A stretch of 64,000 nt of DNA from Eubacteriales bacterium (GTDB taxonomy: Bacteria; Bacillota; Clostridia; Oscillospirales; CAG-272). A model generated the notes under the pieces. That model had not been told where the DNA came from. It made no database searches and saw nothing but the letters and a program-made list of their open reading frames with translations. Shown here in pieces: positions 7,382 through 60,667 of the stretch. Within the stretch, counting starts at the first letter, position 1. Every line of letters begins with the position of its first letter. The stretch covers positions 18,918-82,917 of the forward strand of contig JAZSBH010000039.1 of assembly GCA_045602325.1 (NCBI GenBank), written 5' to 3'. Position numbers and translations under genes: made by a program.

Positions 7382-8486
7382 AAACAACACTGCCAAGGAA
7401 ATCGGCCGTACCCGAGAGCCCTTGCTCCATATCTCCAAGCGAGCCACCATTCCCATGTGGAAAGCCTGGACGATTCGCGTCATCGCGATCCTTGCAGCCT
7501 TCTTGGTCTGCGGTATCATCACCTTTATTCTGGAAGGACGCAATCCCATCGATATGTACGTTGCCATGTTCAAGGGTTCCTTCGGCACCAGCCGTAAGAT
7601 CTGGAAGCTCATCAAGGACTTGGCCGTCCTGCTCTGTATTTCTCTTGCCGTTACCCCTGCTTTCCGTATGAAGTTCTGGAACATCGGCGCCGAGGGTCAG
7701 GTGCTGGTCGGATGTCTCGCCACCACCGCTTGTATGTTTTATCTGGGCGGTAAGATCCCCGATTGGGCTGTTATCATCTGTATGCTGGTCACCGCCCTCT
7801 TGGCAGGAGCCGTCTGGGGCTTGATCCCTGCCATCTTCAAGGCCAAGTGGAACACCAACGAGACCCTCTTTACCCTCATGATGAACTACGTGGCTACGTA
7901 CCTTGTTGCTTTTTTCCTGCTCACTTGGACACCCGACGGTTCCAGTACCCTGAAGCGTCAGGAATACGGTAACCTCCCCGTCCTCTTCGGAAACGAATAT
8001 CTGCTCATCATTCTGGTAGTGGCCGTACTGACCATCGCTATGTACGTCTACCTCAACTATACCAAGCACGGCTACGAGATCTCTGTGGTGGGTGAGAGTG
8101 AGAACACCGCCCGCTACGTAGGTATCAGCGTACCCAAGGTCATCATCCGCACCATGATCGTGTCGGGTGCTATCTGCGGCCTGGCCGGCTTCCTCATCGT
8201 AGGAGGCTTGGATAAGACCATTACCACCGAATCAGCCGGCGGCCAGGGCTTTACCGCCATTATGGTCTCCTGGCTGGCTAAATTCGATCCCTTGGTCATG
8301 GTGCTGACTTCCTTCCTACTCATCTTTCTGGATCAGGGTGCGGCGCAGGTGGCACAGGACTTCAACATCAGCGAAGCATTCCCCAGCATCATTACGGGTA
8401 TCATCCTGTTCTTCATCATCGGATGCGAGTTCTTCATCAATTACAAGGTCGTGTTCCGCGCGGCCAAGAAGGAGGGTAAGGCATGA
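7374..8486 (+). CDS. ABC transporter permease (BMP-type importer)
   Basis: 370 aa, polytopic and hydrophobic. Start overlaps the ATPase stop by 8 nt. Confidence 0.85.
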   Translation: MAKNNTAKEIGRTREPLLHISKRATIPMWKAWTIRVIAILAAFLVCGIITFILEGRNPIDMYVAMFKGSFGTSRKIWKLIKDLAVLLCISLAVTPAFRMKFWNIGAEGQVLVGCLATTACMFYLGGKIPDWAVIICMLVTALLAGAVWGLIPAIFKAKWNTNETLFTLMMNYVATYLVAFFLLTWTPDGSSTLKRQEYGNLPVLFGNEYLLIILVVAVLTIAMYVYLNYTKHGYEISVVGESENTARYVGISVPKVIIRTMIVSGAICGLAGFLIVGGLDKTITTESAGGQGFTAIMVSWLAKFDPLVMVLTSFLLIFLDQGAAQVAQDFNISEAFPSIITGIILFFIIGCEFFINYKVVFRAAKKEGKA

Positions 8487-9451
8487 ATTACGTCTTGGAT
8501 TTTCTTCTCAACGCCATTCCTCTGGGTATGACCTTCCTCTACGGCTCCACCGGTGAGATCATTACCGAGAAAGCCGGACACCTCAACCTAGGTATCCCCG
8601 GCATCATGTGTGTGGGCGCCGCCGGCGGCTGTGCCATGCTTCAGACCCTTGTAATGGCAGGGAATATTCCCGGTGCTTTGATGGTGGTACTGGGGATTCT
8701 GGCCGCTTTCGTGTCTGCTGGACTTATGGGCCTTCTGTACAGCATTCTCACCGTCACCTTTAAAGCTAACCAGAACGTGACGGGTCTGACCATGACCATC
8801 TTCGGTGTAGGCGTAATGAAATTCATCATGACGGGTCTGGAGGGTCACATGTACCTCAAGACGCTGGAATTCTTCCGTTATCCCTTTTCCGTGCTTCTGC
8901 CCGGTACCTCTTGGCAGTACTGCGGCGTGATGGTGTATCTGGCCATTATCATCGCCGTGATCGCCTCTTTGGTGCTCACCAAGACCAAGGTGGGTCTCCA
9001 CCTCCGTGCCGTGGGTGAGAACCCTGCCACCGCCGATGCCGTGGGTATCAACGTCACAGCCTACAAGTATGGTGCCACCATTATTGGTAGTGGTATCGCA
9101 GGTCTGGGCGGACTCTTCTACATCGTTAACTATGCAGGTTCCCCTGAGGCTTACAAGAGTATCGAGACCCTTGGATGGCTGTCCATCGCTCTGGTTATCT
9201 TTGCTCTTTGGAGACCTCATTTGAGCATCTTGGGCTCTGCCGTGTTCGGTGCCCTCTATCTGGCGGGCTCCTATATTCCCACCATCCTGGCCAGTCAGGG
9301 CGTGGGTCTGCCCATGAGCGTTACCCAACTTCTCAAGATGCTGCCCTACGTGGTCACCGTTATCGTGCTGACCGTTACCAGTATCCGCAACAAACGGGAA
9401 AATCAGCCTCCCGCGGGCTTGGGTGTCAACTACTACCGCGAGGAACGTTGA
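8483..9451 (+). CDS. ABC transporter permease (BMP-type importer)
   Basis: 322 aa, polytopic. ATGA start/stop overlap with the preceding permease gene. Confidence 0.85.
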   Translation: MNYVLDFLLNAIPLGMTFLYGSTGEIITEKAGHLNLGIPGIMCVGAAGGCAMLQTLVMAGNIPGALMVVLGILAAFVSAGLMGLLYSILTVTFKANQNVTGLTMTIFGVGVMKFIMTGLEGHMYLKTLEFFRYPFSVLLPGTSWQYCGVMVYLAIIIAVIASLVLTKTKVGLHLRAVGENPATADAVGINVTAYKYGATIIGSGIAGLGGLFYIVNYAGSPEAYKSIETLGWLSIALVIFALWRPHLSILGSAVFGALYLAGSYIPTILASQGVGLPMSVTQLLKMLPYVVTVIVLTVTSIRNKRENQPPAGLGVNYYREER

Positions 9452-34639: not shown

Positions 34640-34663
34640 GGTAGAGTCCTTTCGTCGCTCGGA

Positions 34664-37582
34664 TTACTGTTCCTTACGCTTGATGAACACGACGGAGGAG
34701 AGGAGTGCCATCAGCGCGATGAAGCCCGCGGAAATAACGGTGGATTTGCATCCGCCGGAGGCAGGCTCGGTCTCGGAGACGCCGGGGGTCTCGACGGCGG
34801 GGGCGTCCGTGGGTGTCTCGGTGTCGGGAGTCTGGGTCTCGGGCTCGGTCACGGGTTGAGTCTCGGGAGCCGTAGTCTCATCCTCGGGGTAGGAGATGTT
34901 GGATACACCGGGGATGTAGTTTTGGAAGACGTAATTCATTCTTCCCAAAGGTGCCACGTCGCCGTCGCAGTAGAAGTCCTCCATCTCGTCGTAGGTGGTT
35001 TCGCTGTCGGCCCACTTGAACTGGAAGCAGAGCTCTTTGTAGCCCTCGATGCCCAACAGCTCCTGGGGAACCTCGATCATCATCTTGTTCTCCTTGACGC
35101 GGTAGGCGACCTCACCCACGGTGGTAAAGCCGTACTGACCGTCGGTGCCGTTGTATTTAGCTACGGTGGTGACGGTACCGCTCTTGACCTCGTAGTTTAC
35201 GACATAGTCGTAGCCGTACCAGCCTGTACTGCCGTTGCTGTCGGCGTCGATGTACAGCTTCATCCAGGAGGAATCGTTGTCATACAAAGGAATTTTGTCG
35301 GCGGTCTCAACGTAGAAGTAAATGTTCTTGGAATCAGCGGTCACCTTGGTAGCAACGATGTCGTTACGGCCGGAGGTGTTGGTATAGGGGGTTCTGCCGA
35401 AGCCAATGGCGTCGCGGTCAGCGGTATCGCCCTTGGCGTCGTAGTAGGTGAAAGCGACGGCATCCCATTGGTCAAACTCACCCGTGACGTTGATGGGATT
35501 GCGGGCATCCTGTACCACAATGGGGGCTGCCCCCTTGACGCGCTGGACGTTGTAAGCAAGCTGGATGTAGTAGTTATCGAAGTAACCGCCCCGCATCATC
35601 TCGGAGTCGCGGGAGAACTCCATGGAGGAGGTGTCCACGAAGAAGATACTGCCGTCATTGGTGGGCTGACGCTGGGCGACCCACTCGTTCCAGCCGGTGA
35701 CCAGGATGTACATAGCACCCGAGTCAATGGCGCGGTCGAACTGTGCCTGGAAGTTGAGACCCTGGTTGGTGAGGGTTGGATCGGCCTTCCACTCGTCGTA
35801 GCGCTGCTGGAGAATCTTTTCGTTGGAGCGCTTCTCTGCCCAGAAAGAGCGGCCGCGGTTGGAGGGATCGTTGTACAGGGAGGAGCTGGAGAAGCGGACG
35901 GAACCGCTGTGCTGGGCGATGGAGACGCTGATGGCGGCGCCGTCAAAGTCGTAAGCCGAGCGGAACAGGCGGGACGGCCACTGGAAGTCCATCCAAGGCC
36001 AGCCGTTGACCTTGGACTGCTCGGTGGGCCACTGGTTCTGCTTCATGGTGAAGAAATCGTTGATGTTGGCCTCGTTGGGACCGATGATGACCGGCTTACC
36101 GTTGATCTTGAACCAGGTGTCCTCGTACAGACCCTTGCTGTAGATGTCGTTGTAGACCTGGCGGATAACGTTCTCGGCGGAGGAGTTGGTGTAGAAGACC
36201 ACCTGAGGTGCGTCAAAGCCCTGCTCGTTGAGCTCGTGGAGGCACTCCATGAGCTTCTTGGCGTTGTGGAGGTAGGGGTAGCCGTTGGTGGTATCGAAAT
36301 ACAGGAAGTCGATGTTGGCCTGGGTCAGAAGCTCGGCGTGCTTGCGATGTACCCACTGGTCGTTGGCGTAGTAGTAGCCGTAGAGGGGCTCGGCAAACCA
36401 GTGCATGGCGCCCACGGGGCCGTACTTGCCGCATTTGGTGTTGCCTGCAGCCTCAACACCCACCTCATCGATGATCTTCTGCAAGTCGAAGATACCGCTG
36501 TCGCCGTGCTCACCCTGCCACAGGAAGTAGAACAGACCGACGTACTTCTCACCGGTGGAGCCGTAGGCGCCTACGTCGGTAGAGGTGTACATGGTGCGGT
36601 CGAGGTCGTCGGTGGCGGCGTAACCGCCCATGGTGTAGTTGTAGTTGTTGGGCACGGTGTAAGAGACGGTCTCGCCGTTTACGTGATAGGAAATGGTGAC
36701 ACTCTTACCGTCCTCGGAGACCTCGTACTTGAGGGAACCGCCGTCGGTGTCCTCGGGGGTGGTCTCCTTTTCCGTGTATGTCGGTGTCTCCCAAGCGTAG
36801 TTTTTCTTGGCCTCCTCTTCTTGGCGCTTCAGTTCCTCTTCATAAGCCAGCTTGGCGATATACTGCTCCATATCGAAACCGTTGTAGAGCTCCTCGGTCT
36901 CAAAGAAGGCGATGAAGCGGATGTCGATGGAAGCGCCTGCGGGGATGGGGTACTTGACCCAGCCGGTAGAATCCTTGTAGGGCTCGCCGTTCTCGTTGAG
37001 CACGTAGCCGGCCTCCAGGGGATCGAAGCGGAAGAAGGTAGATTTCGTGCCGTTGTAGGCACCGCTGTCGATGATGGGCTGGGTGTCGAAGCCGTGGGCG
37101 TGCCACTCGCCGTCTGCAACCACAGCGGTCTCCAGCATAGCTGTGTCGTCCTTGGGGTCATTGCCGGTGGAGCCCATGTAGCACTGAATGGTGGTGTTCT
37201 CGGCATTGGAGGAGCGGTAGGCGATGACCACGTACTTGACAGGCATATCCAAGGTGGACATGGGGCGGAAGTAGGGGTCGGCGGCAGAGGGGGTAATGGT
37301 GACGTAACCGTCCTTCAGCTCGACCGAGCCCAGTCTGTCATTGGCACCCGTAGCCTTAGACAGCTCCTCGGCGGTGAGGATGTGGGAGGGCTCGGTGGTA
37401 TTAAAGGTAGGTGCCTCGTCTGCCAGGAGATCGAAGGTGTGCCGATCGCCCGTGCTGGCTGCTGCCTCGGAGGAGAGGACTGTAGCGAGCATCGTAGCGG
37501 TCAGTGTGGCGACAGAGCCGAGCATGAGCACGGCCAGAAGAACCGACATGATCGTCAGAAGAGTTTTCTTTTTTGCGTTCAT
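34664..37582 (-). CDS. large surface protein, paralog B: signal/anchor peptide, same core as paralog A, C-terminal TM anchor
   Basis: 972 aa. Roughly 55-60 percent identical to paralog A across the core by eye, with identical DNA runs of over 20 nt (for example GCTGGATGTAGTAGTTATCGAAGTAACCGCC and ACGTTGATGGGATTGCGGGCATCCTG in both). Pro/Thr/Glu linker, then GGCKS + hydrophobic stretch + KRKEQ. Confidence 0.6.
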   Translation of the reverse strand: MNAKKKTLLTIMSVLLAVLMLGSVATLTATMLATVLSSEAAASTGDRHTFDLLADEAPTFNTTEPSHILTAEELSKATGANDRLGSVELKDGYVTITPSAADPYFRPMSTLDMPVKYVVIAYRSSNAENTTIQCYMGSTGNDPKDDTAMLETAVVADGEWHAHGFDTQPIIDSGAYNGTKSTFFRFDPLEAGYVLNENGEPYKDSTGWVKYPIPAGASIDIRFIAFFETEELYNGFDMEQYIAKLAYEEELKRQEEEAKKNYAWETPTYTEKETTPEDTDGGSLKYEVSEDGKSVTISYHVNGETVSYTVPNNYNYTMGGYAATDDLDRTMYTSTDVGAYGSTGEKYVGLFYFLWQGEHGDSGIFDLQKIIDEVGVEAAGNTKCGKYGPVGAMHWFAEPLYGYYYANDQWVHRKHAELLTQANIDFLYFDTTNGYPYLHNAKKLMECLHELNEQGFDAPQVVFYTNSSAENVIRQVYNDIYSKGLYEDTWFKINGKPVIIGPNEANINDFFTMKQNQWPTEQSKVNGWPWMDFQWPSRLFRSAYDFDGAAISVSIAQHSGSVRFSSSSLYNDPSNRGRSFWAEKRSNEKILQQRYDEWKADPTLTNQGLNFQAQFDRAIDSGAMYILVTGWNEWVAQRQPTNDGSIFFVDTSSMEFSRDSEMMRGGYFDNYYIQLAYNVQRVKGAAPIVVQDARNPINVTGEFDQWDAVAFTYYDAKGDTADRDAIGFGRTPYTNTSGRNDIVATKVTADSKNIYFYVETADKIPLYDNDSSWMKLYIDADSNGSTGWYGYDYVVNYEVKSGTVTTVAKYNGTDGQYGFTTVGEVAYRVKENKMMIEVPQELLGIEGYKELCFQFKWADSETTYDEMEDFYCDGDVAPLGRMNYVFQNYIPGVSNISYPEDETTAPETQPVTEPETQTPDTETPTDAPAVETPGVSETEPASGGCKSTVISAGFIALMALLSSVVFIKRKEQ

Positions 37583-37629
37583 AGTCTGTATCCTTTCTTA
37601 TACACCGCATAAGGGTGGGAATCATACAT

Positions 37630-47530: not shown

Positions 47531-47560
47531 TGTCCCCGTGTAAAAGCGGGGACATTTTTT
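47531..47560 (+). terminator. intrinsic terminator
   Basis: TGTCCCCG (47531-47538) pairs with CGGGGACA (47547-47554), followed by TTTTTT. Confidence 0.85.
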
Positions 47561-47620: not shown

Positions 47621-47659
47621 ATACTCTGTATAGAAATATCTTTTTGAAAGGAAATGTGT

Positions 47660-48664
47660 ATGGCATACAATAACGGCGAAAACCGCAATAAAAAGCCCTA
47701 TAAGCCCGAAGGAGGCAAGGGAACCAAGAAATACCCCGCCGACAGAAACTTCACACCTACGGGAGACCGACCTCACAAGGAAGGAAAGCCCTATAGCAAC
47801 AAAAAGGCCTACGAAAAGAAGCCCTACGGAGACAGTCCCCGCAACGATTATAAGTCATACGATAAGAAGCAGTACGACCGCTTTGACGACCGTGTGGACG
47901 ATGAGGACGGAAACACCTCTGACCCGGAAGCGGAAGGTCTTGTGATAGGCCGCAACGCCGTCCGTGAGCTACTCCGCTCCGACCGTACCGTGGACAAGCT
48001 CCTGGTGCGCCGCGGAGACCGTGAGGGCTCCATCGTGGTGCTGGTGGCCGAAGCGGTGGAAAAGGGTATTCCCGTGGTGGAAGTGGATAAGAGCAAGCTG
48101 GATAATCTGGCTGGCTTCGTGCCCCACCAAGGGGTGATCGCCATGGTCGCCCAAAAGGAATATTGTACCGTGGAGGACATCCTCGCCATTGCCGCCGAGC
48201 GGGGAGAAAAGCCCTTTATTGTTATTGCCGATGGCATTACCGACCCTTATAATCTGGGGGCGCTTATCCGTTGTGCCGAGGGGTGCGGTGCCCACGGGCT
48301 CATCATCCCCCGCCGTCGCGCCGTGGGACTCACCGCTTTGGTGGCTAAGTCCTCTGCGGGGGCCATGGAGCATCTGGCTGTAGCCAAGGTCGCCAATATT
48401 CATACTACCATTCTTGAGCTTCAAAAGGCCGGCGTGTGGGTCTACGCGGCTGAGGCAGGCGGTGCCGCTCATTACAATACCAACTTTGAAGGCCCCTGTG
48501 CGTTGGTCATGGGCAGTGAGGGAGACGGCGTTTCCCGCGTAGTCAAGGATGCCTGTGATGGCATCGTGTCCATTCCCATGTACGGCCACGTAAACTCCTT
48601 TAACGTGTCCACCGCGGCCTCGGTCATTTTGGCCGAGATCGCCCGTCAGCATCATAAAAAATAA
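47660..48664 (+). CDS. rlmB: TrmH/SpoU-family 23S rRNA Gm2251 2'-O-methyltransferase with basic N-terminal extension
   Basis: About 334 aa. ATG at 47660 lies 7 nt after GAAAGGA; the track ATG at 47654 is also possible. SpoU motifs GSEGDGVS and IPMYGHVNSFNVSTAASVILAE. Lys/Pro/Tyr-rich first ~95 residues. Confidence 0.85.
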   Translation: MAYNNGENRNKKPYKPEGGKGTKKYPADRNFTPTGDRPHKEGKPYSNKKAYEKKPYGDSPRNDYKSYDKKQYDRFDDRVDDEDGNTSDPEAEGLVIGRNAVRELLRSDRTVDKLLVRRGDREGSIVVLVAEAVEKGIPVVEVDKSKLDNLAGFVPHQGVIAMVAQKEYCTVEDILAIAAERGEKPFIVIADGITDPYNLGALIRCAEGCGAHGLIIPRRRAVGLTALVAKSSAGAMEHLAVAKVANIHTTILELQKAGVWVYAAEAGGAAHYNTNFEGPCALVMGSEGDGVSRVVKDACDGIVSIPMYGHVNSFNVSTAASVILAEIARQHHKK

Positions 48665-48704
48665 AAAAGCGAATCCCCATTCCAAACCGAAGGGAGGGAC
48701 TGAC

Positions 48705-51700
48705 TTGTCCGATCCGAAGAAGAATGCGAAAAAGAATCCCGAGAATACGTCCGTGGATTGGGCTGAAAAACTGAAAGCCTCCATGAATGACGGGTACACA
48801 GAATCGAAAACCGATACGTCTTCCGTCGACGACGATGATCTGGCCGCGTTGCTCCGTGCGCAGTTGAGCATGAATACGACCGAGACCTCCTTGTTGGAAA
48901 CGTTGGATACGTCTGAATTTGAAGAAGAAGAGGCGGAGGACGAGAACGAGGAAGAAAAAGTATTTCTGGATCCCGAATGCCCCGTTTTTGACGACTCCGA
49001 CGATCTCGTCGAGGGAGACCCTGACGAGATCATTGAGGACGAGCCCGACGAGAATATGGAGGACGATCTCGATGAGATCATCGAGGATGATCTTGACGAG
49101 ATCATTGAGGACGAGCTCGACGAGAATATGGAGGACGATCTTGATGAGATCATTGAGGATGATCTTGACGAGATCATTGAGGACGAGCCCGACGAGAATA
49201 TGGAGGACGATCTTGATGAGATCATCGAGGACGAACCCGACGAGAACATGGTGGACGATCTTGACGAGATCATCGAGGACAAACAAGATGAAAATAGTAT
49301 GGAGTATGAGGAAGATGTCTTCATTAAGGCAGAATCGTCCCCTTCGATCAAGAGATATTATCGCCGACCCTCGAATACCTATTATACAGACGACCGCTTG
49401 AACGGGCTGTCTCCCGATGAGATTCTCGGGGGGGCTCGGTTGCAGGCGCTGGATAAGGAAAATACAAGATTACTCAAGGAGGAAGATCCGTACTATACGT
49501 CGGGGGATTCTGGAATTGATATGGCTCATATCACTCCGGAGGACGAGAGCGGATTGGCCGTCGATGAAATCTTAGGCGAAGAAAACCGAGAGCCCATTCA
49601 CCGAACGGCAGAAAAGCACACCGTCAACCGTTCTCGTTCATTTGTACAGATTCGTGATCCGTTACAGTTGAATCTGGATGATATTTCTCCCACGGCAGGA
49701 CATAATTTTACGATCAAACCCAAAGATACCACCATATCTTCAACAACTGCATCCCGCCATACGGCGGAACACGCGGATTACACCGAATCCATGTCTTATG
49801 CGGGTGGCGAAAAAGAAATGCTCCGTGATACCGATTTGTGTATGCGGCTTGGTTACGAGGAATCTCTCCGTCATGCTGACGAGCAAAAACGCGTTGAGCA
49901 GATCAGGGCAAATACATATGAGAATCAAAAGACAAGATCATCGAATGAACGCCCCGTAGTGAAATTCGGACGTGAATACCGAGGGCGAACAGATACCGAC
50001 CGTATTGAGCTTCTGTATACCCGTGCCCGTCGGTATAATCTGATTCGCTTGTGTCTTGCGTGTACAGGAGCTCTGGGAGCTCTCCTGTATGATACCTTAC
50101 CGGTAATGGCTACCTCCGACAACGTCATATCCTTCACAAACTCGCTTCTGTATGCTCCGCTCGGTCTTCTTTGGATGCTCTTGGTTTGTTTGCCCTTCGT
50201 CACCCGTCTGGGGAGGGGGATCAAGAGTCTGTTGAGCTTTGAACCTACACGATTCGCTGTCGCGGCTATGGGTATTCTTATTACGACGGTTCACGATGTG
50301 ATCGCATGCTTCGTGAGGGATCCTGCCGGACTACCCCTATTTGGCGGTGTTGCGCTGGTCATGCTATCCGTTGCTACACTGTCCGAATATTGGGTGACAG
50401 AGGGAGAGCATCTTGCCTTTGCGGTGGTGTCTTCCGGAAAAACCGCCCATGTTATGACGAATGAGCCTACTCCTGCCACGACCGCTTTGCACCATTTCCA
50501 CGAGGCCGGCAAAGATCTCGGCAGAGCGAATGCTTCGTCCAAACGGTCAATTTTTACCATTGTTCACACAGGACAGATCGCAGACTACTTTGCTCGTACG
50601 GAGCAATATAATTCCTATATGGGACGGCTCAATTACCTACTTCCTGTTGCGCTGCTTATCTCCATTGTCAGTGCAGGGTTGGCGGTGATGCTGAAAGGAG
50701 ATCCCTTGACGGACGGTGTACGGACATTTACGGCCACGTATTTGTCGTGTATACCCGCCGCTTATCTCATCGCCATGACGCTTCCTTTGTATGAAGTCAA
50801 TCGCTCTCTCTGCAAAAAAGGTGCGGCTGTTATCGGAACCGCCGCCCCCGATGAGTATGTAGGCAAATACCCGGCGCATTTGATTTTCCCCGATGGAGAC
50901 GCCTTGAAAACTTTGTATCGAAAGGATATCACCCTGCGAGGGGATCATGATTCGGCTGAATGGCAACGTATAGCGGACGTGATCTTCTGCCTTTTGGATA
51001 CACCCCTTGGGGTAGAGTCTGCACTCCGTGATCGAAGCGCAGAAGGATACCGCATCGATATTGCCGAGACTGCAGATCAATACCTTCGCCTCTACTTGTT
51101 TGACACCGAAAACCATCGCACAATAGAAGTTATGATGGGCTCTCATGATGCTCTGACGCGCCGAGGTGTACGCCTTCCGAAGATCAATATGGAACAGCGG
51201 TATAAAAAGAGCGAGGGAAGCCGTGTGATGTATCTGGCATTTAACCGCAGTTTTCATTTGGCATACGCCGCAGAATACCGTGTGGGACGCACCTTCGCTC
51301 GTACGGCTACTACTCTTTTCGAGATGGGACACGGCGTGTCGCTCGCTTCCTATGATCCGCTGTTGGATTCCGATATGGAGGGGATCAACCGCCTGCGTAA
51401 GCGGCATCAGTTGGACGTACTCCGACCTACAGATTACGAGCCTGTCCGTAAAACCCGTTCCAGCGGAGTGATCGCGACGGGACGCTGCCTGGATATTATT
51501 CGTCCTTTAACAGCCTGCCATGGTATGAAGCGAGCATATCGGAATGCCTACTTATTCAGCTGGCTGTTCCTTGCTGTAAGTGCAGGTTTATCCATGCTGG
51601 CGGCTTGCTTGGGTGGACAAGGTCTGTTGTGCTCGGTCATTGTGTCTGCTTGGCAGATGATCGTTGCCCTTGCCATGATCTCTGTCAGCCTTATGTCGGT

Positions 51701-51782
51701 AAGAAAAACCATGGACAGTGAAACAAAGCCGCAATTTGACCTTAAGTTTGAGGAACCTACCGAAAACGCCCCCCAAAAATGA
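48705..51782 (+). CDS. large membrane protein: acidic tandem-repeat N-terminus plus degenerate P-type-ATPase-like membrane scaffold
   Basis: 1025 aa. TTG start with GGGAGGG 6 nt upstream. Residues ~105-195 are D/E-rich repeats. Hydrophobic helices run from residue ~445 onward in a P1B-ATPase-like order, but no DKTGT, TGES or GDGxND was seen. Confidence 0.7.
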   Translation: MSDPKKNAKKNPENTSVDWAEKLKASMNDGYTESKTDTSSVDDDDLAALLRAQLSMNTTETSLLETLDTSEFEEEEAEDENEEEKVFLDPECPVFDDSDDLVEGDPDEIIEDEPDENMEDDLDEIIEDDLDEIIEDELDENMEDDLDEIIEDDLDEIIEDEPDENMEDDLDEIIEDEPDENMVDDLDEIIEDKQDENSMEYEEDVFIKAESSPSIKRYYRRPSNTYYTDDRLNGLSPDEILGGARLQALDKENTRLLKEEDPYYTSGDSGIDMAHITPEDESGLAVDEILGEENREPIHRTAEKHTVNRSRSFVQIRDPLQLNLDDISPTAGHNFTIKPKDTTISSTTASRHTAEHADYTESMSYAGGEKEMLRDTDLCMRLGYEESLRHADEQKRVEQIRANTYENQKTRSSNERPVVKFGREYRGRTDTDRIELLYTRARRYNLIRLCLACTGALGALLYDTLPVMATSDNVISFTNSLLYAPLGLLWMLLVCLPFVTRLGRGIKSLLSFEPTRFAVAAMGILITTVHDVIACFVRDPAGLPLFGGVALVMLSVATLSEYWVTEGEHLAFAVVSSGKTAHVMTNEPTPATTALHHFHEAGKDLGRANASSKRSIFTIVHTGQIADYFARTEQYNSYMGRLNYLLPVALLISIVSAGLAVMLKGDPLTDGVRTFTATYLSCIPAAYLIAMTLPLYEVNRSLCKKGAAVIGTAAPDEYVGKYPAHLIFPDGDALKTLYRKDITLRGDHDSAEWQRIADVIFCLLDTPLGVESALRDRSAEGYRIDIAETADQYLRLYLFDTENHRTIEVMMGSHDALTRRGVRLPKINMEQRYKKSEGSRVMYLAFNRSFHLAYAAEYRVGRTFARTATTLFEMGHGVSLASYDPLLDSDMEGINRLRKRHQLDVLRPTDYEPVRKTRSSGVIATGRCLDIIRPLTACHGMKRAYRNAYLFSWLFLAVSAGLSMLAACLGGQGLLCSVIVSAWQMIVALAMISVSLMSVRKTMDSETKPQFDLKFEEPTENAPQK
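49023..49286. repeat. in-frame tandem repeat, eleven 24-bp units organised as 48+24 bp super-units
   Basis: Unit starts at 49023, 49071, 49095, 49143, 49167, 49215 and 49263. The 72-bp blocks 49023-49094 and 49095-49166 differ at 3 positions. Encodes DEIIEDEPDENMEDDL / DEIIEDDL. Confidence 0.95.
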
Positions 51783-53680
51783 AATACACAACGATAAGCG
51801 ATAAGGAAAAAACAACCATCATGAACCAAAATCAAAAACGTATGCTCCTGACCTCCGTATCCCGTCCCGGCCGTTACGCGGGCGGTGAGTACGGTCAGAT
51901 CATCAAGGACAAAACCACCGTCAAGGCGCGCTTTGCCTTCGCATTCCCCGATTCCTACGAGATCGGTATGTCCAACCTGGGCGTCCGCATCCTCTACCAT
52001 TGCCTCAACCTTCACGACGACATCTGGTGCGAGCGTACCTACGCCCCCTGGACGGATATGCAGGAAAAGATGGTGGCAGGGAACGTCCCACTTACCTGCC
52101 TGGAGAGCGGCGATCCCATCTCCGAATTTGACTTTTTGGGCTTCACCCTCCAGTATGAGATGTGCTACACCACTGTGCTGAATATGCTGGAGCTGTCCCA
52201 TATCCCCCTTCGTGCGTCTGACCGTGGCGAGAACTGCCCCCTGGTCATCGGTGGTGGCCCCTGCGCCTACAATCCCGAGCCCATCGCGGATTTCTTTGAC
52301 CTCTTCAACATCGGTGAGGGCGAGGAAATGCTTCCCGAAATTGTTCGTCTCTACATCAAGATGAAGGACGAGGGCACCTATACCCGCGCCGCCTTCCTCC
52401 ACGAGGCCGCCCGCACCATTCAGGGCGTTTACGTGCCTTCTCTCTACAAGGTCACCTACAACCCCGATGGCACCGTGGAGGCCTACACCCCTATCTACGA
52501 CGATATCCCCAAGACCGTGACCAAGCGCATCGTGAAGGATCTGGATAAGACTCCTTTCCCTGATAAGGTGGTCATGCCCTACATCGAGACGGTGCAGGAT
52601 CGCATCACGGTAGAGGTGGGACGTGGCTGTATCCGCGGTTGCCGCTTCTGCCAGGCGGGCATGGTCTACCGCCCCGTCCGCGAAAAGTCCCCCGAGGTGG
52701 TGGACTGCCAGTGCCGCGCCATCTTCGAGTCCTCGGGTTACGAGGAAATGTCCCTGTCCTCCCTGTCCATCAGCGATTACACCAAGGTCAATGAGCTGAC
52801 CGACAGCCTCCTGTCCTGGTCGAATCCCAACATGGTCAGCCTCTCCCTGCCCTCCCTCCGTGCCGATTCCTTCACCCGCGAGCTCATGGACAAGGTGGCC
52901 TCCATCCGCAATTCCACCATCACCTTCGCCCCTGAGGCAGGCTCCCAGCGGCTCCGCGACGTCATCAATAAGAATCTGTATGAGGAAGACCTTATGCGCG
53001 CGGTGAACGTGGCCTTTGACGTGGGTAAGAATCAGGTCAAGCTCTACTTCATGCAGGGCCATCCCACCGAGACCGACGAGGATCTGGCCGAAATCCCCGA
53101 GCTGGCCCACCGCGTGGTGTCTGCCTACTATCAGAATCCCAACCGCCGCAAGGGTCAGCACGCCCAGGTCACCATCAGCGTCTCCCCCTTCATCCCCAAG
53201 ACCTTTACCCCTTTCCAGTGGGAGCCCCAGGACACCCTCGAGGAGATGGAGCGCAAGCAGGCCTTCGTGGGCTCCTGCGTCCACGACCGCCGTGTGAAAT
53301 ACAACTACCATAACGCCAAGACCTGTCATCTGGAGGCAGTTTTTGCCCGCGGTGACCGCCGCCTCGCTCCCGCCCTGGAGGAAGCCTGCCGTCGCGGCTA
53401 TAAGTTCGAGGCATGGTCGGAGTTTTTCAACTACGAGGGATGGATGGAGATCTTTGCCGAAACCGGCATTGACCCTGCCTTCTACGCCAACCGCCGCTAC
53501 GGTCTGGACGAAGTCCTCCCCTGGGACGTCATCGACTGCGGCGTGACCAAGAAATTCCTGCAAAGAGAGAACGCCCGCGCCCACGAGGGGAATACTACCC
53601 CCAACTGCCGCGAAAACTGCTCGGGCTGCGGAGCCAATAAGATGGGAGGTGAGCGCGCATGCTGTCCCAAGACAAAATGA
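51779..53680 (+). CDS. B12-binding-domain radical SAM protein, TIGR03960-like
   Basis: 633 aa. CIRGCRFC (Cx3Cx2C). N-terminal VSRPGRYAGGEYG pattern. The ATG at 51779 overlaps the upstream TGA (ATGA). An alternative ATG at 51821 would give a more typical N-terminus. Confidence 0.85.
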   Translation: MKYTTISDKEKTTIMNQNQKRMLLTSVSRPGRYAGGEYGQIIKDKTTVKARFAFAFPDSYEIGMSNLGVRILYHCLNLHDDIWCERTYAPWTDMQEKMVAGNVPLTCLESGDPISEFDFLGFTLQYEMCYTTVLNMLELSHIPLRASDRGENCPLVIGGGPCAYNPEPIADFFDLFNIGEGEEMLPEIVRLYIKMKDEGTYTRAAFLHEAARTIQGVYVPSLYKVTYNPDGTVEAYTPIYDDIPKTVTKRIVKDLDKTPFPDKVVMPYIETVQDRITVEVGRGCIRGCRFCQAGMVYRPVREKSPEVVDCQCRAIFESSGYEEMSLSSLSISDYTKVNELTDSLLSWSNPNMVSLSLPSLRADSFTRELMDKVASIRNSTITFAPEAGSQRLRDVINKNLYEEDLMRAVNVAFDVGKNQVKLYFMQGHPTETDEDLAEIPELAHRVVSAYYQNPNRRKGQHAQVTISVSPFIPKTFTPFQWEPQDTLEEMERKQAFVGSCVHDRRVKYNYHNAKTCHLEAVFARGDRRLAPALEEACRRGYKFEAWSEFFNYEGWMEIFAETGIDPAFYANRRYGLDEVLPWDVIDCGVTKKFLQRENARAHEGNTTPNCRENCSGCGANKMGGERACCPKTK

Positions 53681-54417
53681 ACCGTATATCCAAATTTGAC
53701 CGCGAAAAGCTGGATACCCCCATCACGGTTCGCGTGATCTTCCAAAAGACGGGTAACCTCCAGTATTTTTCCCATCTTGATCTCCAGCGCACCTGGCAGA
53801 GAGTCCTGGTCCGCGCCTCCATCCCCATGTGGTACACCCAGGGCTTCAACCCCCACAGTAAGATCACCTTCGGCGTGCCTCTGCCCGTAGGTTCCGAGGG
53901 CATGGAGGAAATGGTAGACCTCCGCATCGATCGTGAGATCACCCCCGCCGAGATCAAGGCCCAGCTCAACGCCGAGCTCACCGCCGAGATGCAGGTCTCG
54001 GAGGTCTATATCCCCACCACCGCCTTCTCGGATATCGCCTGGGGTACCTACCAGATGACCCTGAAGACCCCCGGTGACCCCATCGAAAACGCTCGTGCCA
54101 TCAATGCCATCTTCGCCCCCGACGCCGAGCCCATCATCATGACCAAGCGAAGCAAATCGGGCGATAAGGATGTCAACATCCTCCCCATGATCCACGCGGT
54201 CAAGGCTGTGGCCGACGTCAACGGATTCATTCAAATCCGCGCCACCCTCCGTGCGGGGAATAGTGAGAATCTGAATCCCGAGTACCTCATTAAGGCTATG
54301 CGGGATCGCCTCGGCATTCTCCCTGAGGGCGGCGAGTATGATGAGGTGTGGTATCGGATTCTGCGTATCGGCTTCCATGACGAAAAGGGAGTGGAAGTAG
54401 GGAAGTGGTTCCGGTAA
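53659..54417 (+). CDS. radical SAM-associated protein, TIGR03936/DUF2344-like
   Basis: 252 aa. GGAGG 9 nt upstream of the ATG at 53659. Alternative ATG at 53677 forms ATGA with the upstream stop. YFSHLDLQRTWQR and GFNPHSKITFG pattern. Confidence 0.8.
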   Translation: MLSQDKMNRISKFDREKLDTPITVRVIFQKTGNLQYFSHLDLQRTWQRVLVRASIPMWYTQGFNPHSKITFGVPLPVGSEGMEEMVDLRIDREITPAEIKAQLNAELTAEMQVSEVYIPTTAFSDIAWGTYQMTLKTPGDPIENARAINAIFAPDAEPIIMTKRSKSGDKDVNILPMIHAVKAVADVNGFIQIRATLRAGNSENLNPEYLIKAMRDRLGILPEGGEYDEVWYRILRIGFHDEKGVEVGKWFR

Positions 54418-54509: not shown

Positions 54510-54908
54510 ATGAAAAAGCATATCCCTCAAATTGTTCTCCTGCTCCTCTGTATCCTGCGCCCCTTCTCCCGCGTCTTCAATATGCTGGCCTATTTGGCCG
54601 CCTACGTGGACGAGTCCGCCGGCTTCCTCATTGATCTGGCCGGCTTGATATGGGGCATCGTGGGTATCGTCGTTGCCTCAGGCTTGATCTTTCGTCTCAT
54701 GCGAAAGATCAGCGCATGGATGACCTTCGCTGTCACGGGTCTTGATATCCTCGCTTGCCTCTACTTCGTGGTTGTGAACGGAGGACTCATGATGCTCTTT
54801 ATCCTGATCTCCCTGTTCTTCTCGGTCGCCATGCTTTTGTTGGGTATCATTACATTGCGTACGTTGGACGGGAAGTTCCTTTCTGATCGCATTAAGTGTT
54901 TTTCCTGA
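54510..54908 (+). CDS. hypothetical membrane protein
   Basis: 132 aa. AAAGGAG SD. Four hydrophobic segments. Confidence 0.6.
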   Translation: MKKHIPQIVLLLLCILRPFSRVFNMLAYLAAYVDESAGFLIDLAGLIWGIVGIVVASGLIFRLMRKISAWMTFAVTGLDILACLYFVVVNGGLMMLFILISLFFSVAMLLLGIITLRTLDGKFLSDRIKCFS

Positions 54909-54927: not shown

Positions 54928-54959
54928 CTAAAAGGGCGATTCCCCACGGGAACCGCCCT
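54928..54959 (-). terminator. intrinsic terminator after the beta-helix lipoprotein gene
   Basis: AGGGCG-a-TTCCC / GGGAA-c-CGCCCT hairpin (54933-54959), followed on the minus strand by TTTTAG. Confidence 0.6.
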
Positions 54960-56981: not shown

Positions 56982-57130
56982 AAAAGTATTTCCTTTGCTC
57001 AAATCTGTTCTACCTATAGTATACCGCTTAACTGTGTTAACAAAAAGAAAGCGATTTTGAAAATATTTGAAAATTTTGTGAAGTTTGCAAGAACGTAGAT
57101 CCAAACGGTTTTGCTTTGAAAGGATTCTAT

Positions 57131-58393
57131 ATGAAACTGACCCTCGTAGCCACCTGTATGTTCGGTCTGGAAAAGCTCCTTGGTGAGGAGATCGACGCCC
57201 TGGGTCTCAAACGCCTGGATACCATGGACGGGCGCGTCACCTTTGAGGGCGAGGAGGCCGATATCCCCCGCGTCAATATCGCCCTGCGCTGTGCCGAGCG
57301 CGTATTTATCCGGCTTGGCCTGTTTCCGGCTCGCAGTTTTACCGAACTGTTTGACGGAACCAAAGCACTCCCCTGGGAGGAGTGGATCGGACGTGCCGAT
57401 GCTTTCCCGGTTAAGGGACACGCCATCAAAAGTACCCTGACCTCCATCCCCGACTGCCAGAGCATCATCAAAAAGGCGGTTGTTGAGCGGTTGCATGACA
57501 AGTATGGCATCTCCTGGTTCGAGGAAACGGGGGTCAAATACCAGATCGAATTCTTCATTTTCAAGGATATGGCCCACCTCATGATCGATACCTCGGGGGT
57601 TGCCCTCCATAAGCGGGGCTACCGTCCCGAGGCAGGCGCCGCACCTTTGCGCGAGACCCTGGCCGCCGCCCTGGCGCTTACTGCCCGTCCACGCGAGGAT
57701 ATCCTTTTCTGGGACCCCTTCTGCGGCTCGGGTACCATTGCTATTGAAGCGGCTATGATCGTCAGCGGACGTGCCCCCGGATGGGGACGCTCCTTTGCAG
57801 GAGAGGCTTTTGCCAATATCCCGAAGACTCTGTGGGACACCGCCCGCGAGGAAGCGCAGGCAAAAATCCGCACCGACTGCAAATTTGAGGTTTATGCCTC
57901 GGATATAGATGAGGATATTCTCGACATCACATACGAAAACGCTCTACGTGCAGGGGTAGAAGAGTACCTCAACATCTTCCAAGCTGATGCCCGTAAAATT
58001 AAAAAGGAAGACAGAAAGGGAACCGTTGTCTGCAATCCACCCTACGGCGAGCGCATGGGCGAGCGGGAGGAGATCGAGCGGCTCTACCAACAGCTCGGAG
58101 GCTCCTTCAAAGCCCTCTATCCATGGCAGATCTACATTCTGACCTCTTGCGACCGCTTCGACCGTCTGTACGGTCAGCGTGCCGATAAGGTGAAAAAACT
58201 CTATAACGGTATGCTCCCGTGCTACCTGTACGAGTATTTCAAGCCTGCGGAAGCCCGCGCGGAAGGAGGGCGTACCGCCAAAGAGATCTTTGACCGTAAG
58301 GCAGACCGCCACCCGGATTTCCGCGACGGAGGCCGCAGACACAACGGAGGCTCCGGGAAACCGTCGTATCCGCCGAAAAAGAAGCCGTTTTAA
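57131..58393 (+). CDS. THUMP-domain class I SAM-dependent RNA methyltransferase (RlmL/YpsC-like)
   Basis: 420 aa from the ATG at 57131 (GAAAGGA SD). N-terminal THUMP-like region. DPFCGSGT SAM motif. Catalytic NPPYGER. Basic C-terminal tail. Confidence 0.8.
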   Translation: MKLTLVATCMFGLEKLLGEEIDALGLKRLDTMDGRVTFEGEEADIPRVNIALRCAERVFIRLGLFPARSFTELFDGTKALPWEEWIGRADAFPVKGHAIKSTLTSIPDCQSIIKKAVVERLHDKYGISWFEETGVKYQIEFFIFKDMAHLMIDTSGVALHKRGYRPEAGAAPLRETLAAALALTARPREDILFWDPFCGSGTIAIEAAMIVSGRAPGWGRSFAGEAFANIPKTLWDTAREEAQAKIRTDCKFEVYASDIDEDILDITYENALRAGVEEYLNIFQADARKIKKEDRKGTVVCNPPYGERMGEREEIERLYQQLGGSFKALYPWQIYILTSCDRFDRLYGQRADKVKKLYNGMLPCYLYEYFKPAEARAEGGRTAKEIFDRKADRHPDFRDGGRRHNGGSGKPSYPPKKKPF

Positions 58394-58436
58394 TTGTATC
58401 CGACCCGATACGGACAAATTGCACATCATGTAAAAG

Positions 58437-58457
58437 CTATACCACAAAATCACCAAT
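58437..58457. repeat. left arm of a perfect 21-bp inverted repeat
   Basis: CTATACCACAAAATCACCAAT is the exact reverse complement of 58560-58580. Confidence 0.95.
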
Positions 58458-58552
58458 CGTCTTGTTTGGGACATTTGCCCCCGCATTTCGGGGGAAATAA
58501 GAAGAAATTGTAAATAATGACACCTTTCTTGCCCAAAATCACAAAAAGACTG

Positions 58553-58581
58553 TTGACAAATTGGTGATTTTGTGGTATAGT
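58553..58581 (+). promoter_or_regulatory. sigma-A type promoter for rsmE
   Basis: TTGACA (58553-58558), 17 nt, TGgTATAGT ending at 58581. The spacer and most of the -10 lie inside the right repeat arm. Confidence 0.6.
58560..58580. repeat. right arm of the perfect 21-bp inverted repeat
   Basis: ATTGGTGATTTTGTGGTATAG, 102 nt from the left arm. Confidence 0.95.
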
Positions 58582-58727
58582 ATTTTCATAAAGTTGACCA
58601 AATCGTTTGTGAATTGTCACTATGGCTGAAAAACGATGGTCAAATTGACCGAAACTTCCCGATCTTGCACGCCCCGCGCCTGTCAAGTCGGGTTTTCTGT
58701 CCATAAAAAAGGGGAAGGAGTGGTAGC

Positions 58728-59489
58728 ATGCCGCGTTTCTTTATTGATCCGTCTGCTGTCAGCGGCGACAGGATTATTTTGACGGGAGAAAACGCCCACC
58801 ACGCCGCCTACTCCCTGCGGTTAGCGCCGGGAGACAGGATCAAGGTCTGCGACCAGCAGACCGCCTATCTCTGCGAGATGGTCTCCTTTGACAGTGAGAC
58901 CGCCACGGCCCGAGTCCTTTCATCTGGTCCGATTGATACGGAGCCTCCTTTCGTAGCCCGCCTTTACCAGGCGCTCCCCAAGGGAGATAAGCTGGATACG
59001 ATCATCCAGAAGGCTGTGGAGTGCGGTGTGACCGAGGTGATCCCCTTTGAGAGCAGTCGTTGTATCGTACGTGCCAAGCCTGAAGCCGAAGTCCGCAAGA
59101 CTGAGCGCAGATGCCGCATCGCCGAGGAAGCCGCCAAACAGTGCGGACGCGGGATCATACCCACAGTGAGGCCCACCGTTTCCTATGCCGACGCGTTGCA
59201 GGCTGCGGCTGACGCGGATCTGGTTTTGTTCTGCTATGAGGGAAGTGAGGTAACGCCTCTCCCTGCTGTGATTGAGCAAGCGCACTCCAAGCTGGATGCT
59301 GCCGAGCAAAGCGGCCGCAAACCCCAGATCGCCATTTTCGTCGGCAGTGAAGGGGGCTTTTCCCCCGATGAAGTCGATGCTGCCCGTTCCCGTGATTTCG
59401 TGCTGACGGGATTGGGTAAGCGAATTCTTCGCACCGAGACCGCTTCAGGGTTTGTCTTGAGTTGTCTTATTTATGCCCTTGAACTTTGA
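58728..59489 (+). CDS. rsmE: 16S rRNA (uracil1498-N3)-methyltransferase
   Basis: 253 aa. GGGGAAGGAG SD. MPRFFI N-terminus, PUA-like domain. KGDKLDTIIQKAVECGV and ILRTETA motifs. Confidence 0.9.
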   Translation: MPRFFIDPSAVSGDRIILTGENAHHAAYSLRLAPGDRIKVCDQQTAYLCEMVSFDSETATARVLSSGPIDTEPPFVARLYQALPKGDKLDTIIQKAVECGVTEVIPFESSRCIVRAKPEAEVRKTERRCRIAEEAAKQCGRGIIPTVRPTVSYADALQAAADADLVLFCYEGSEVTPLPAVIEQAHSKLDAAEQSGRKPQIAIFVGSEGGFSPDEVDAARSRDFVLTGLGKRILRTETASGFVLSCLIYALEL

Positions 59490-59581
59490 TTCCCATAGCC
59501 CATCTCCCTTCGTACCCGATTCCGCGCGGCGGATGATTATACATTTTTAATTTGTGAAATAACAAAGAGAGGTAAAAGTCT

Positions 59582-60667
59582 ATGTCTAACAGACTGTTCC
59601 AGAGCGTGATCCATCAAATGAAGGACGCGGTTGATCGCACCATCGGTGTCATCGATGAGACCGGCGTCATCATCGCCTGCTCCGAGCTCGTCAAGATCGG
59701 CGAGGTGCGTCAGAGCATCCGTGACGAATTGGCGTACACCACCGATATTGTGGTGTCGGGTGGTTACACCTACCGTCCTCTGTCCGGCGGTGCCAAGCGT
59801 GAGTACGTCGTGTTTGTGGAGGGCGAGGATGCCGAGGCCGATAAGACCTCCCGTCTTCTGTGCGTTGCCCTTGGCAACATCAAGAACCTGTACGACGAAA
59901 AGTATGACAAGGGTTCCTTTATCAAGAACATCATTCTTGATAACATTCTGCCCTCCGATATTTACATCAAGTCCAAGGAGCTTCATTTCAACGCCGAGGA
60001 ATCCCGCGTGGTGTTCCTGGTGAAGTTCTCGGGTAAGACCGATATGATGCCCTTTGAGATGCTCCAGAATATGTTCCCCGACAAGGCACGCGATTACGTC
60101 ATCAGCGTGGGTGAGCATGATATCGTTCTGGTTAAGGAAGTCAAGGCCGGTGCAGAGAACCGCGATATGGAAAAGGTTGCCACCAATATTGTGGACACTA
60201 TGTCCTCTGAGTTCTATACCAAGGTCTCGGTCGGTGTGTCCACCATCGTGGATAACATCAAGGATCTGGCCAGAGCCTATAAGGAAGCCCAGATCGCCCT
60301 GGACGTCGGCAAGGTCTTTGAGAATGAAAAGAGCGTTGTCAGCTATGAGAACCTCGGCATTGGCCGTCTGATCTACCAGCTTCCCACCACCCTCTGCGAG
60401 ATGTTCCTCCAGGAGGTCTTCAAGAAGGGTAGCCTGGAGTCCCTCGACCGCGAGACTCTCATGACCATCCAGTGCTTCTTTGAGAACAACCTCAACGTTT
60501 CCGAGACCTCTCGTAAGCTCTTCGTCCACCGCAACACCCTGGTGTACCGCCTGGAAAAGATCCGCAAGCTGACTGGTCTGGATCTCCGCGAGTTTGAGCA
60601 CGCCATTACCTTCAAGGTGGCGCTGATGGTCAAGAAGTACCTCAGCTCCAAGCCCGGTAAGTTCTGA
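59582..60667 (+). CDS. PucR/CdaR-family transcriptional regulator
   Basis: 361 aa. AGAGAGG SD. C-terminal PucR HTH (NVSETSRKLFVHRNTLVYRLEKIRKLTG). Confidence 0.8.
   Translation: MSNRLFQSVIHQMKDAVDRTIGVIDETGVIIACSELVKIGEVRQSIRDELAYTTDIVVSGGYTYRPLSGGAKREYVVFVEGEDAEADKTSRLLCVALGNIKNLYDEKYDKGSFIKNIILDNILPSDIYIKSKELHFNAEESRVVFLVKFSGKTDMMPFEMLQNMFPDKARDYVISVGEHDIVLVKEVKAGAENRDMEKVATNIVDTMSSEFYTKVSVGVSTIVDNIKDLARAYKEAQIALDVGKVFENEKSVVSYENLGIGRLIYQLPTTLCEMFLQEVFKKGSLESLDRETLMTIQCFFENNLNVSETSRKLFVHRNTLVYRLEKIRKLTGLDLREFEHAITFKVALMVKKYLSSKPGKF

Follow-up and report, generated by a model that had tools for sequence, protein, structure and literature searches.

The DNA analyzed here, a window of 64,000 nt from an Eubacteriales bacterium (contig JAZSBH010000039.1), contains on its forward strand an open reading frame (ORF) at positions 48705..51782 that starts with TTG and encodes a protein of 1025 amino acids, followed by a stop codon. 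The protein is called X in the following; all coordinates refer to the window, homologous loci are numbered L0xx, and homologous proteins are numbered P0xxx. The gene is preceded by a gene for an RlmB-type 23S rRNA methyltransferase and followed by a gene pair of the radical SAM (S-adenosylmethionine) families TIGR03960 and TIGR03936 (Table 1). The assignment of the start codon is sound, because a Shine-Dalgarno motif is located 5 nt upstream and because X and its homologues have the N-terminus MxxxK...VDWAEKLKASM in common. A first-pass annotation, which was made from the sequence alone, had described X as a membrane protein with the scaffold of a P-type ATPase and a long acidic arm, stripped of all catalytic motifs.

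The hydropathy profile of X revealed four transmembrane helices (residues ~449-562), a loop of ~75 residues, two further helices (~640-697), a second loop of ~250 residues, and two final helices (~947-1000). Hydropathy and the structure predicted with AlphaFold2 (AF2) both yielded the layout of P1B-type ATPases, i.e., MA, MB, M1, M2, the actuator (A) domain, M3, M4, the phosphorylation/nucleotide-binding (P/N) domain, M5, and M6. The model of the core (residues 430-1025, computed from an input of 38 sequences) had a pLDDT (predicted local distance difference test) of 90.5 and a pTM (predicted template modeling score) of 0.87. A comparison of the core with the PDB using Foldseek had the Legionella CopA structure 4bbj as the top match (E 1.2e-11, TM score 0.51), followed by ATP7B, 3rfu, 7r0g, ZntA, and CadA. 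The top matches were exclusively P-type ATPases with the P1B pumps in first place, and the similarity to P-type structures was thus significant; KdpB, MgtA, SPCA, Pma1, SERCA, and others appeared as secondary matches with E values from 1e-8 to 1e-5. Alignment of the core of 170 family members with CopA and ZntA of E. coli using hhalign resulted in a probability of 97.6% (E 1.5e-11) in the global mode and of 93.5% in the local mode. In addition, a profile of distant family members matched the canonical HMA+E1-E2+Hydrolase ATPase P0217 with an E value of 8.8e-8 among 5.8e9 proteins, and the hidden Markov model (HMM) alignment of the family profile with P0217 spanned MA-M2 as well as M3-M4-P/N. 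According to these E values, the resemblance between X and the P1B pumps is well beyond chance.

The relationship emerged only via the fold, the HH comparison, or the profile of a distant subfamily. Scans of X with the Pfam, NCBIfam, and PADLOC models gave no match even at E 0.1 or 0.01; the Pfam models E1-E2_ATPase and Hydrolase did not match even at E 0.1. Sequence searches of the PDB chains with X or with the A1 profile did not retrieve any P-type ATPase but only low-complexity noise. Nevertheless, because Foldseek, hhalign, and the family profile are three independent grounds, the homology of residues ~430-1004 to P1B-type ATPases can be regarded as established. The helix order that the first-pass annotation had recognized from about residue 445 onward, including the two final helices M5 and M6, was borne out by hydropathy, AF2, Foldseek, hhalign, and the family profile.

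Table 1. Coordinates of X, its parts, and its neighboring genes in the 64,000-nt window
Feature	Position	Strand	Evidence and remarks
RlmB-type SpoU 23S rRNA 2'-O-methyltransferase gene	47654..48664	+	TIGR00186, 209.7 bits (cutoff 160); 40-nt gap before X
Shine-Dalgarno motif AAGGGAGGGA	48690..48699	+	5 nt before the TTG start; read from the sequence; strong site
Complete X ORF	48705..51782	+	dN/dS 0.17 in a pair of close homologues
Short helix conserved at the N-terminus, residues 17-28 (VDWAEKLKASM)	48753..48788	+	D18, E21, and L23 invariant in the A3 alignment; AF2 helix 19-28
Second conserved short helix, residues 43-56 (DDLAALLRAQL)	48831..48872	+	Alignment and AF2 model
Tandem DNA repeat, period 24/48/72, coding for the acidic DEIIEDEPDENMEDDL array	49022..49280	+	Tandem Repeats Finder (TRF); inside the disordered arm
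Conserved juxtamembrane helices with the 'LRLGYE' motif, residues 359-407	49779..49925	+	Alignment and AF2; G383 invariant
Helices MA, MB, M1, and M2 (residues 428-575) with the MB-M1 'platform' RGIKSLLSFEPTRF, aligned with CopA aWKSLL..nMD	49986..50429	+	AF2, hhalign, hmmsearch
Remnant of the A domain, ~60-75 residues (normally ~115), without TGES	50430..50612	+	Motif scan, hhalign, AF2
M3 and M4, residues 637-704; M4 reads S-C-I-P684-A-A-Y..T-L-P694, the counterpart of CPCALGLATP	50613..50816	+	hhalign, hmmsearch, alignment
P/N-like cytoplasmic domain, residues 705-927	50817..51485	+	Alignments, conservation
M5 and M6, residues 928-1004, without YN/MxxSS or another P1B metal-ligand signature; Gln984 79%	51486..51716	+	Conservation, AF2
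B12-binding-like radical SAM gene, TIGR03960	51779..53680	+	901.9 bits (cutoff 462); ATG overlaps the TGA stop of X (ATGA)
TIGR03936/DUF2344 radical-SAM-associated gene	53659..54417	+	163.5 bits (cutoff 72); overlaps the end of the radical SAM gene

Next to this conserved architecture, the motifs of the catalytic cycle were absent. A regular expression scan of X did not find any DKTG[TS], [TS]GE[SAN], GDGxN[DA], TGD, or CP[CHS]-type motif, and the absence of DKTGT, TGES, and GDGxND, which had been noticed by eye, was thereby confirmed. Neither DKTG[TS] nor GDGxND occurred anywhere in 321 homologues; a looser search for DKTG gave only one stray match, which lies in P0073 within the N-terminal arm and away from the motif position. 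The profile alignments revealed what stands in the places of the motifs. RGIKSLLSFEPTRFAVAAMG was paired with CopA aWKSLL..nMDxLVALG and SCIPAAYLIAMTLP with CPCALGLATP, and LIFPDGDAL was aligned with VVFDKTGTL, all three as had been proposed for the MDxLVxLG segment, the CPC helix, and FDKTGTLT, respectively. A fourth proposal had to be revised, as VSLASYDP was not placed at GDGxND but on mlTGDN. The platform glycine G505 was retained in 169 of the 170 members, and the M4 prolines P684, which corresponds to the CPC proline, and P694 were conserved to 98% and 94%, respectively. C682 was found in only 49% and is shifted by one position.

The M2-M3 loop of ~60-75 residues was mostly gapped in comparison with the A domain of CopA and did not contain TGES. 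In the N-domain, the His of 'SEHPL' was lost (HP is replaced by [G/T/C]-P-L, with TPL in X) and GxG was gone, so that only the Gly of 'GN' remained, which was present in all members (G812, 170/170). This glycine opens the most conserved N-like stretch, G812-S-x-x-x-L-x-R-x-G-[IV]-R823-x-P825, and this region lines the nucleotide site in real pumps. The P domain is shorter than that of CopA by ~25-45 residues. For the GDGxND region two counterparts have to be considered, DVLRPTDYEP, which was chosen by hhalign with near-zero confidence, and IATGRCLD, which by our own count fits the CopA spacings of TGD, VLP, and GDG better. When the C-terminal half of the P domain was re-aligned alone, the confidence of hhalign was still near zero and both counterparts stayed. 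GDGxND itself is gone under either alignment, and the region reads LRPxxxE or ATGRxLD in the family.

P-type ATPases are defined by the phospho-aspartate cycle, and the A domain is needed for their dephosphorylation. Judged from its sequence, X is devoid of most features of a functional P-type ATPase, i.e., DKTGT, TGES, GDGxND, the N-domain signature, and the transmembrane ligands, and it is therefore classified as a P1B-derived, non-canonical family and not as a P-type ATPase; ATPase activity is probably absent. The possibility that X still pumps as a P-type ATPase whose motifs have diverged strongly appears highly improbable. Such a pump would agree with the overall P-type architecture, the Asp beside the motif I position, and the retained TGD-like S/T-Y-D, but the three signatures are missing family-wide, the A domain is a stub of ~60-75 residues, and the ATP-binding residues of the N-domain are absent.

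The former active site, in contrast, has not been erased, and the claim that X is stripped of all catalytic motifs holds for the signatures but not for a (S/T)-Y-D-P form of TGD, which was kept in ~95%, nor for the acidic pocket, which was conserved. Motif I of X reads LIF-P729-D730-G-D732-AL, and both the HMM and the HH alignments placed residue 729 at the position of the phospho-Asp. This residue is Pro in X and R, P, S, D, or A across the family, while the conserved Asp730 (91%) occupies the position of the Lys. In 23 of the 170 members an Asp is present at the true phospho-Asp position; these are mostly distant subfamilies that read F-D-D-[TS]-[DE], which, from sequence, resembles a transitional form between DKT and today's motif. 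The equivalent of TGD is S882-Y-D884-P885 (S/T882 95%, D884 96%, and P885 99% of the 170 members), with the Gly replaced by Tyr. Toward the C-terminus of the P domain follow R907-P908...E912 and T925-G-R-C-L-D930. The conservation around the former active site amounted to 91% for D730, 85% for D/E732, 91% for both K/R907 and E/D912, and 75% for D930. The conservation pattern suggests that the pocket is still constrained and may bind something.

The P domain of P-type ATPases has the HAD Rossmannoid fold, and the HAD core motifs are DxDx[TV] (I), S/T (II), K/R (III), and DD or GDxxxD (IV). It is conceivable, although unlikely, that X has retained HAD-type chemistry or the binding of phosphate/Mg and acts as a membrane-embedded phosphatase or as a phosphorylation or ligand switch. 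Candidates for all four motifs can be named, i.e., D730-x-[D/E]732, which resembles motif I (DxD), S/T882, which resembles motif II, K/R907 for motif III, and E/D912 or D930 for motif IV, each being conserved to 75-95% among the 170 members, with the Asp offset by one residue and motif IV ambiguous. In addition, the distances between the TGD equivalent and P908 and between P908 and G926 correspond to those of TGD...VLP and VLP...GDG in CopA by our count, and the distant members with F-D-D-[TS]-[DE] also fit such a chemistry. Several observations speak against it. D730 is located one residue past the phospho-Asp position in both alignments, and 16 of the 170 members have A, E, S, or G in its place, an unusual degree of variation for a catalytic nucleophile. 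Neither GDGxND nor a DD-type motif IV could be assigned with confidence, the cap (N) domain does not carry a nucleotide-binding signature, and X, unlike HAD phosphatases, has no Pfam HAD or Hydrolase match.

The membrane part was analyzed for residues that could bind a transported metal. No Cys, His, or Met was conserved there, YN and MxxSS were missing from M5/M6, and M5-M6 turned out to be the least conserved part of the core (0.35). Acidic residues were conserved at D463 (D/E 90%) and E561 (E/D 99%), as was Q984 (79%), and neither an HMA domain nor another metal-binding domain was found in X by the Pfam scan. These results bear on the idea that X is a passive channel or carrier, or a device for the hand-off of a metal or cofactor that reuses the P1B membrane path and, for example, supplies the adjacent radical SAM enzyme. 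The well-preserved membrane core with both M4 prolines and the MB-M1 platform, the three conserved polar residues, and the linkage to the gene of a metallo-cofactor enzyme, which carries an Fe-S cluster and a B12-like domain, would be in agreement with this idea. It is nevertheless quite improbable, as there are no conserved membrane ligands, the cysteine of M4 is present in only half of the members, the final helices are the most variable, and a domain that could deliver a metal was not found.

Where real pumps have their metal-binding domains, X has an acidic, disordered arm of ~430 residues. The long acidic arm with a repeat array was correctly recognized in the first-pass annotation; Asp and Glu together make up 55% of residues 60-200, and the repeat was recovered by TRF. 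In the AF2 model of the full-length protein, residues 1-357 were largely disordered, mostly with a pLDDT below 50, and only short helices were predicted within this part (residues 19-28, VDWAEKLKAS; 43-56, DDLAALLRAQL; and 243-259). Better-defined helices with an invariant 'LGYE' motif (residues 359-407) precede MA. The motif of the N-terminal helix returns as '[DE]LLKKLQAS' in members that have only ~22-25% identity in the core. Across the family, the arms have a median length of 413 amino acids and a median Asp+Glu content of 24%. P0178 contains at residues ~150-215 another acidic-hydrophobic tandem repeat, (EEPIV/EEPII)n, the sequence of which is unrelated to the DEIIEDEPDENMEDDL array of the window. 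Repeats of this kind suggest that acidic-hydrophobic arrays arise repeatedly in the arms of the family. Different members carry unrelated arrays. It is the property of the arm that appears to be under selection and not one particular sequence.

The family of X comprised 67 clusters at 90% identity. An exhaustive search of representatives of 50%-identity clusters gave 663 matches at E<=1e-3, of which 326 remained when the threshold was lowered to E<=1e-10 and 76 when it was lowered to E<=1e-30; nearly all of the 150 matches listed covered the full core. All homologues are named 'hypothetical protein', and they stem from metagenome-assembled genomes of uncultured Clostridia, Oscillospiraceae, Ruminococcaceae, and Eubacteriales, mostly from the animal gut. 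X seems, as far as sequence collections can tell, to be common in uncultured gut Clostridia. The family is currently invisible to annotation, as neither Pfam nor NCBIfam contains a model for it. A tblastn search of plasmid and phage collections did not yield any match to X, and therefore, there is no sign of a mobile-element origin.

Intact ORFs for X of ~700-1100 amino acids were present in 27 of 27 fetched homologous loci. The locus L026 contains X as two adjacent genes, an ORF of 341 amino acids at the position of the arm (5949-6974, no Pfam match) and a core of 704 amino acids (7001-9115), which could be a real split or the result of a frameshift or an assembly error. For the close homologues of L018 and L019, the ratio of nonsynonymous to synonymous substitution rates (dN/dS) was 0.17 for the whole gene, 0.11 for the core, and 0.27 for the arm, compared with 0.04 for the radical SAM gene. 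X evolves much faster than its neighbors; over the same loci the identities were 24-58% for X, 70-97% for the radical SAM protein, and 69-90% for RlmB. In a comparison of L008 and L011, the dS of X (0.77) was about threefold higher than that of the adjacent radical SAM gene (0.25) in the same genome pair, which could point to recombination at X or to its replacement, or to mutational or codon constraints that differ between the genes.

By these substitution ratios, X is under purifying selection. A decaying or pseudogenized copy of a P1B pump, or a chance resemblance to one, has next to no probability. The fast evolution of X relative to the radical SAM gene would be expected for decay, but intact ORFs were found in all 27 loci, 326 representatives were retrieved at E<=1e-10, and the dN/dS of the core was 0.11; furthermore, 38 sequences sufficed for an AF2 model with a pLDDT of 90, and invariant residues are present. 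The reading of X as a pseudogene was therefore rejected on the basis of dN/dS and conservation. The first-pass annotation had named two outcomes that would refute it, a lack of significant structural similarity to P-type ATPases and a decaying variant with motif-bearing homologues, and neither occurred; the motif loss was shared by the 321 homologues and, with dN/dS values of 0.11-0.17, was not accompanied by decay.

The genomic neighborhood of X was analyzed in the homologous loci. The order SpoU(RlmB)-X-radical SAM(-DUF2344) was kept in every locus with DNA that extends far enough. It persisted even in L026-L028, in which X has only ~24% identity and all other flanking genes are different. 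In these three loci (L026 9190-11799, L027 10051-12690, and L028 9390-12017), the TIGR03960-type radical SAM protein and DUF2344/TIGR03936 are fused to a protein of ~870-880 amino acids that is encoded directly downstream of the X homologue. The overlap of the X stop codon with the ATG of the radical SAM gene, which had been noticed before, does exist in the window as ATGA, but this 4-nt overlap is particular to this genome, and the gap between the two genes is ~15-80 nt in the homologues.

Upstream of rlmB, a terminator-like hairpin (47531-47554) is followed by promoter-like sites, and a strong hairpin (~54933-54959) is located after the DUF2344 gene and a small ORF. These elements are consistent with a single rlmB-X-radical SAM-DUF2344 transcription unit. 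The small ORF (54510-54908, forward strand) encodes a hydrophobic protein of 132 amino acids with no Pfam match and may be the last gene of the unit. An Rfam scan of the whole window gave no result at the gathering threshold, and therefore, neither a riboswitch nor an RNA gene accounts for the operon. In summary, there is good evidence from the gene order for a conserved RlmB-X-radical SAM transcription unit, and a functional link of X to these genes is suggested, though not conclusively, by the same comparison.

The RlmB protein of the window has an N-terminal low-complexity extension of ~95 amino acids (47654-47938) that is rich in Lys, Pro, and Tyr, with KKPY/EKKPYGD-like repeats. A conserved 'GTKKYPADRNFTP' motif in this extension is common to close relatives, and the extensions are shorter in the distant loci (~30-70 amino acids). 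An electrostatic pairing of the basic extension with the acidic arm of X was considered and dropped, because the net charge is only +2 to +14 and an inspection of 20 loci by eye did not reveal an obvious charge relation. Further downstream (57116-60667) lie genes for an RlmL-like protein (THUMP+UPF0020), an RsmE-like protein (Methyltrans_RNA), and a PucR-type regulator, an order that is common to the close relatives L001-L005. With RlmB and these RlmL-like and RsmE-like genes close downstream, the neighborhood is rich in rRNA methyltransferases. Elsewhere in the window, two ORFs of ~970-990 amino acids overlap almost completely on opposite strands (34631-37612, forward; 34664-37582, reverse), and neither has a Pfam match (E<=1e-3).

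Taken together, we propose that X is a non-pumping membrane scaffold or regulator that is derived from a P1B-type ATPase and uses its arm motifs and its pocket to bind partners or a ligand, and we give this interpretation a probability of roughly 60%. The part concerning the P1B-derived structure and the lack of pumping is, taken by itself, very probable. X has retained the membrane core of eight helices and, in the cytoplasm, a P/N module of reduced size, and it has lost the parts for an ATP-driven Post-Albers cycle, i.e., the DKTGT loop, TGES and most of the A domain, GDGxND, the His and GxG of the N-domain, and the CPC/YN/MxxSS ligands. X would be anchored in the membrane without pumping, and its disordered arm and conserved charged pocket would serve to bind a ligand or partners, among which RlmB and the products of the TIGR03960/TIGR03936 radical SAM pair are the most likely candidates. 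The idea that these enzymes of its operon are tethered or regulated by X is tentative, and the conserved gene order gives some reason for it.

Several points weigh against this interpretation. The tie of X to RlmB and the radical SAM pair is one of gene order, membership in an operon with housekeeping genes can last without functional coupling, and the ATGA overlap has not been kept in the homologues. Moreover, D730, D/E732, S/T882, D884, K/R907, and E/D912 are conserved to ~85-96% and some distant members have an Asp at the phospho-Asp position (FDD[TS]), so that residual phosphate or metal chemistry is possible. Lastly, the equivalence of residues is ambiguous in the latter half of the P domain.

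In comparison with known systems, the P1B pumps CopA (3RFU/4BBJ/7R0G), ATP7B, ZntA, and CadA have the 8-helix topology, the order of the cytoplasmic insertions, and a P/N-like module between M4 and M5 in common with X. The segments that align are the MB-M1 platform (KSLL...), the M4 prolines, the strand before DKTGT, 'xPLA' and 'G(N)' of the N-domain, and TGD. In contrast, the identity is only 10-15%, X does not have DKTGT/TGES/GDGxND, His/GxG, CPC/YN/MxxSS, or an HMA domain, and it carries the acidic arm of ~430 amino acids instead. KdpB (P1A), MgtA, SPCA, Pma1, and SERCA also have the P-type fold, but they are more distant from X than the P1B pumps, do not have MA/MB or have extra C-terminal helices, and have kept all catalytic motifs.

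The nearest precedent found in the literature is of eukaryotic origin. In flippase-guanylate cyclase chimeras (P4GC; for example, those of Cryptosporidium and P4GC-beta of Plasmodium), some lineages have changed or lost the Asp of DKTGT and the Glu of the A-domain motif LDGET (PMC13466520). The degenerate ATPase module nevertheless stays essential, which suggested a non-pumping regulatory role (PMC13466520). Like X, P4GC thus contains a P-type module that has lost catalytic residues. In contrast to X, which is bacterial, P1B-derived, and free-standing, with a truncated A domain and a family-wide loss, P4GC is P4-derived, is fused to a cyclase, and has full A, N, and P domains. Literature searches on P-type ATPase pseudoenzymes returned the P4GC paper but nothing else of relevance, and a recent review of P-type ATPases (PMC10654040) has no relevant mention of 'inactive', 'degenerate', 'non-catalytic', or 'pseudo'. 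A large, free-standing family under selection that has the P-type fold but not its chemistry was not described in the searched literature, and X itself was not described in the searched databases or literature. Searches for DUF2344 and TIGR03960 likewise did not yield a functional description. The TIGR03960/TIGR03936 pair is common in bacteria and, to our knowledge, has no known function.

X is a solid and surprising evolutionary outcome within a textbook enzyme family, and its function is a proposed one. If the pseudoenzyme reading is true, X would be the first free-standing, non-pumping derivative of a P-type ATPase that we know of. X might even be the founder of a bacterial family of P-type pseudoenzymes, in which the P1B core serves as a membrane receptor or platform that, by means of its remodeled P/N pocket and the acidic disordered arm, recruits or gates the TIGR03960/TIGR03936 system and possibly RlmB at the membrane, a possibility that we regard as doubtful at present. 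In that case it would offer the first functional handle on the TIGR03960/TIGR03936 family. More generally, a family of this kind illustrates the conversion of a primary pump to another purpose, be it as a scaffold, a sensor, or a passive pathway. It also amounts to a natural experiment on the structurally indispensable parts of the fold, namely the M4 prolines, the MB-M1 platform, and the TGD-like turn, and its strict linkage to TIGR03960/TIGR03936 is a concrete way into that radical SAM system.

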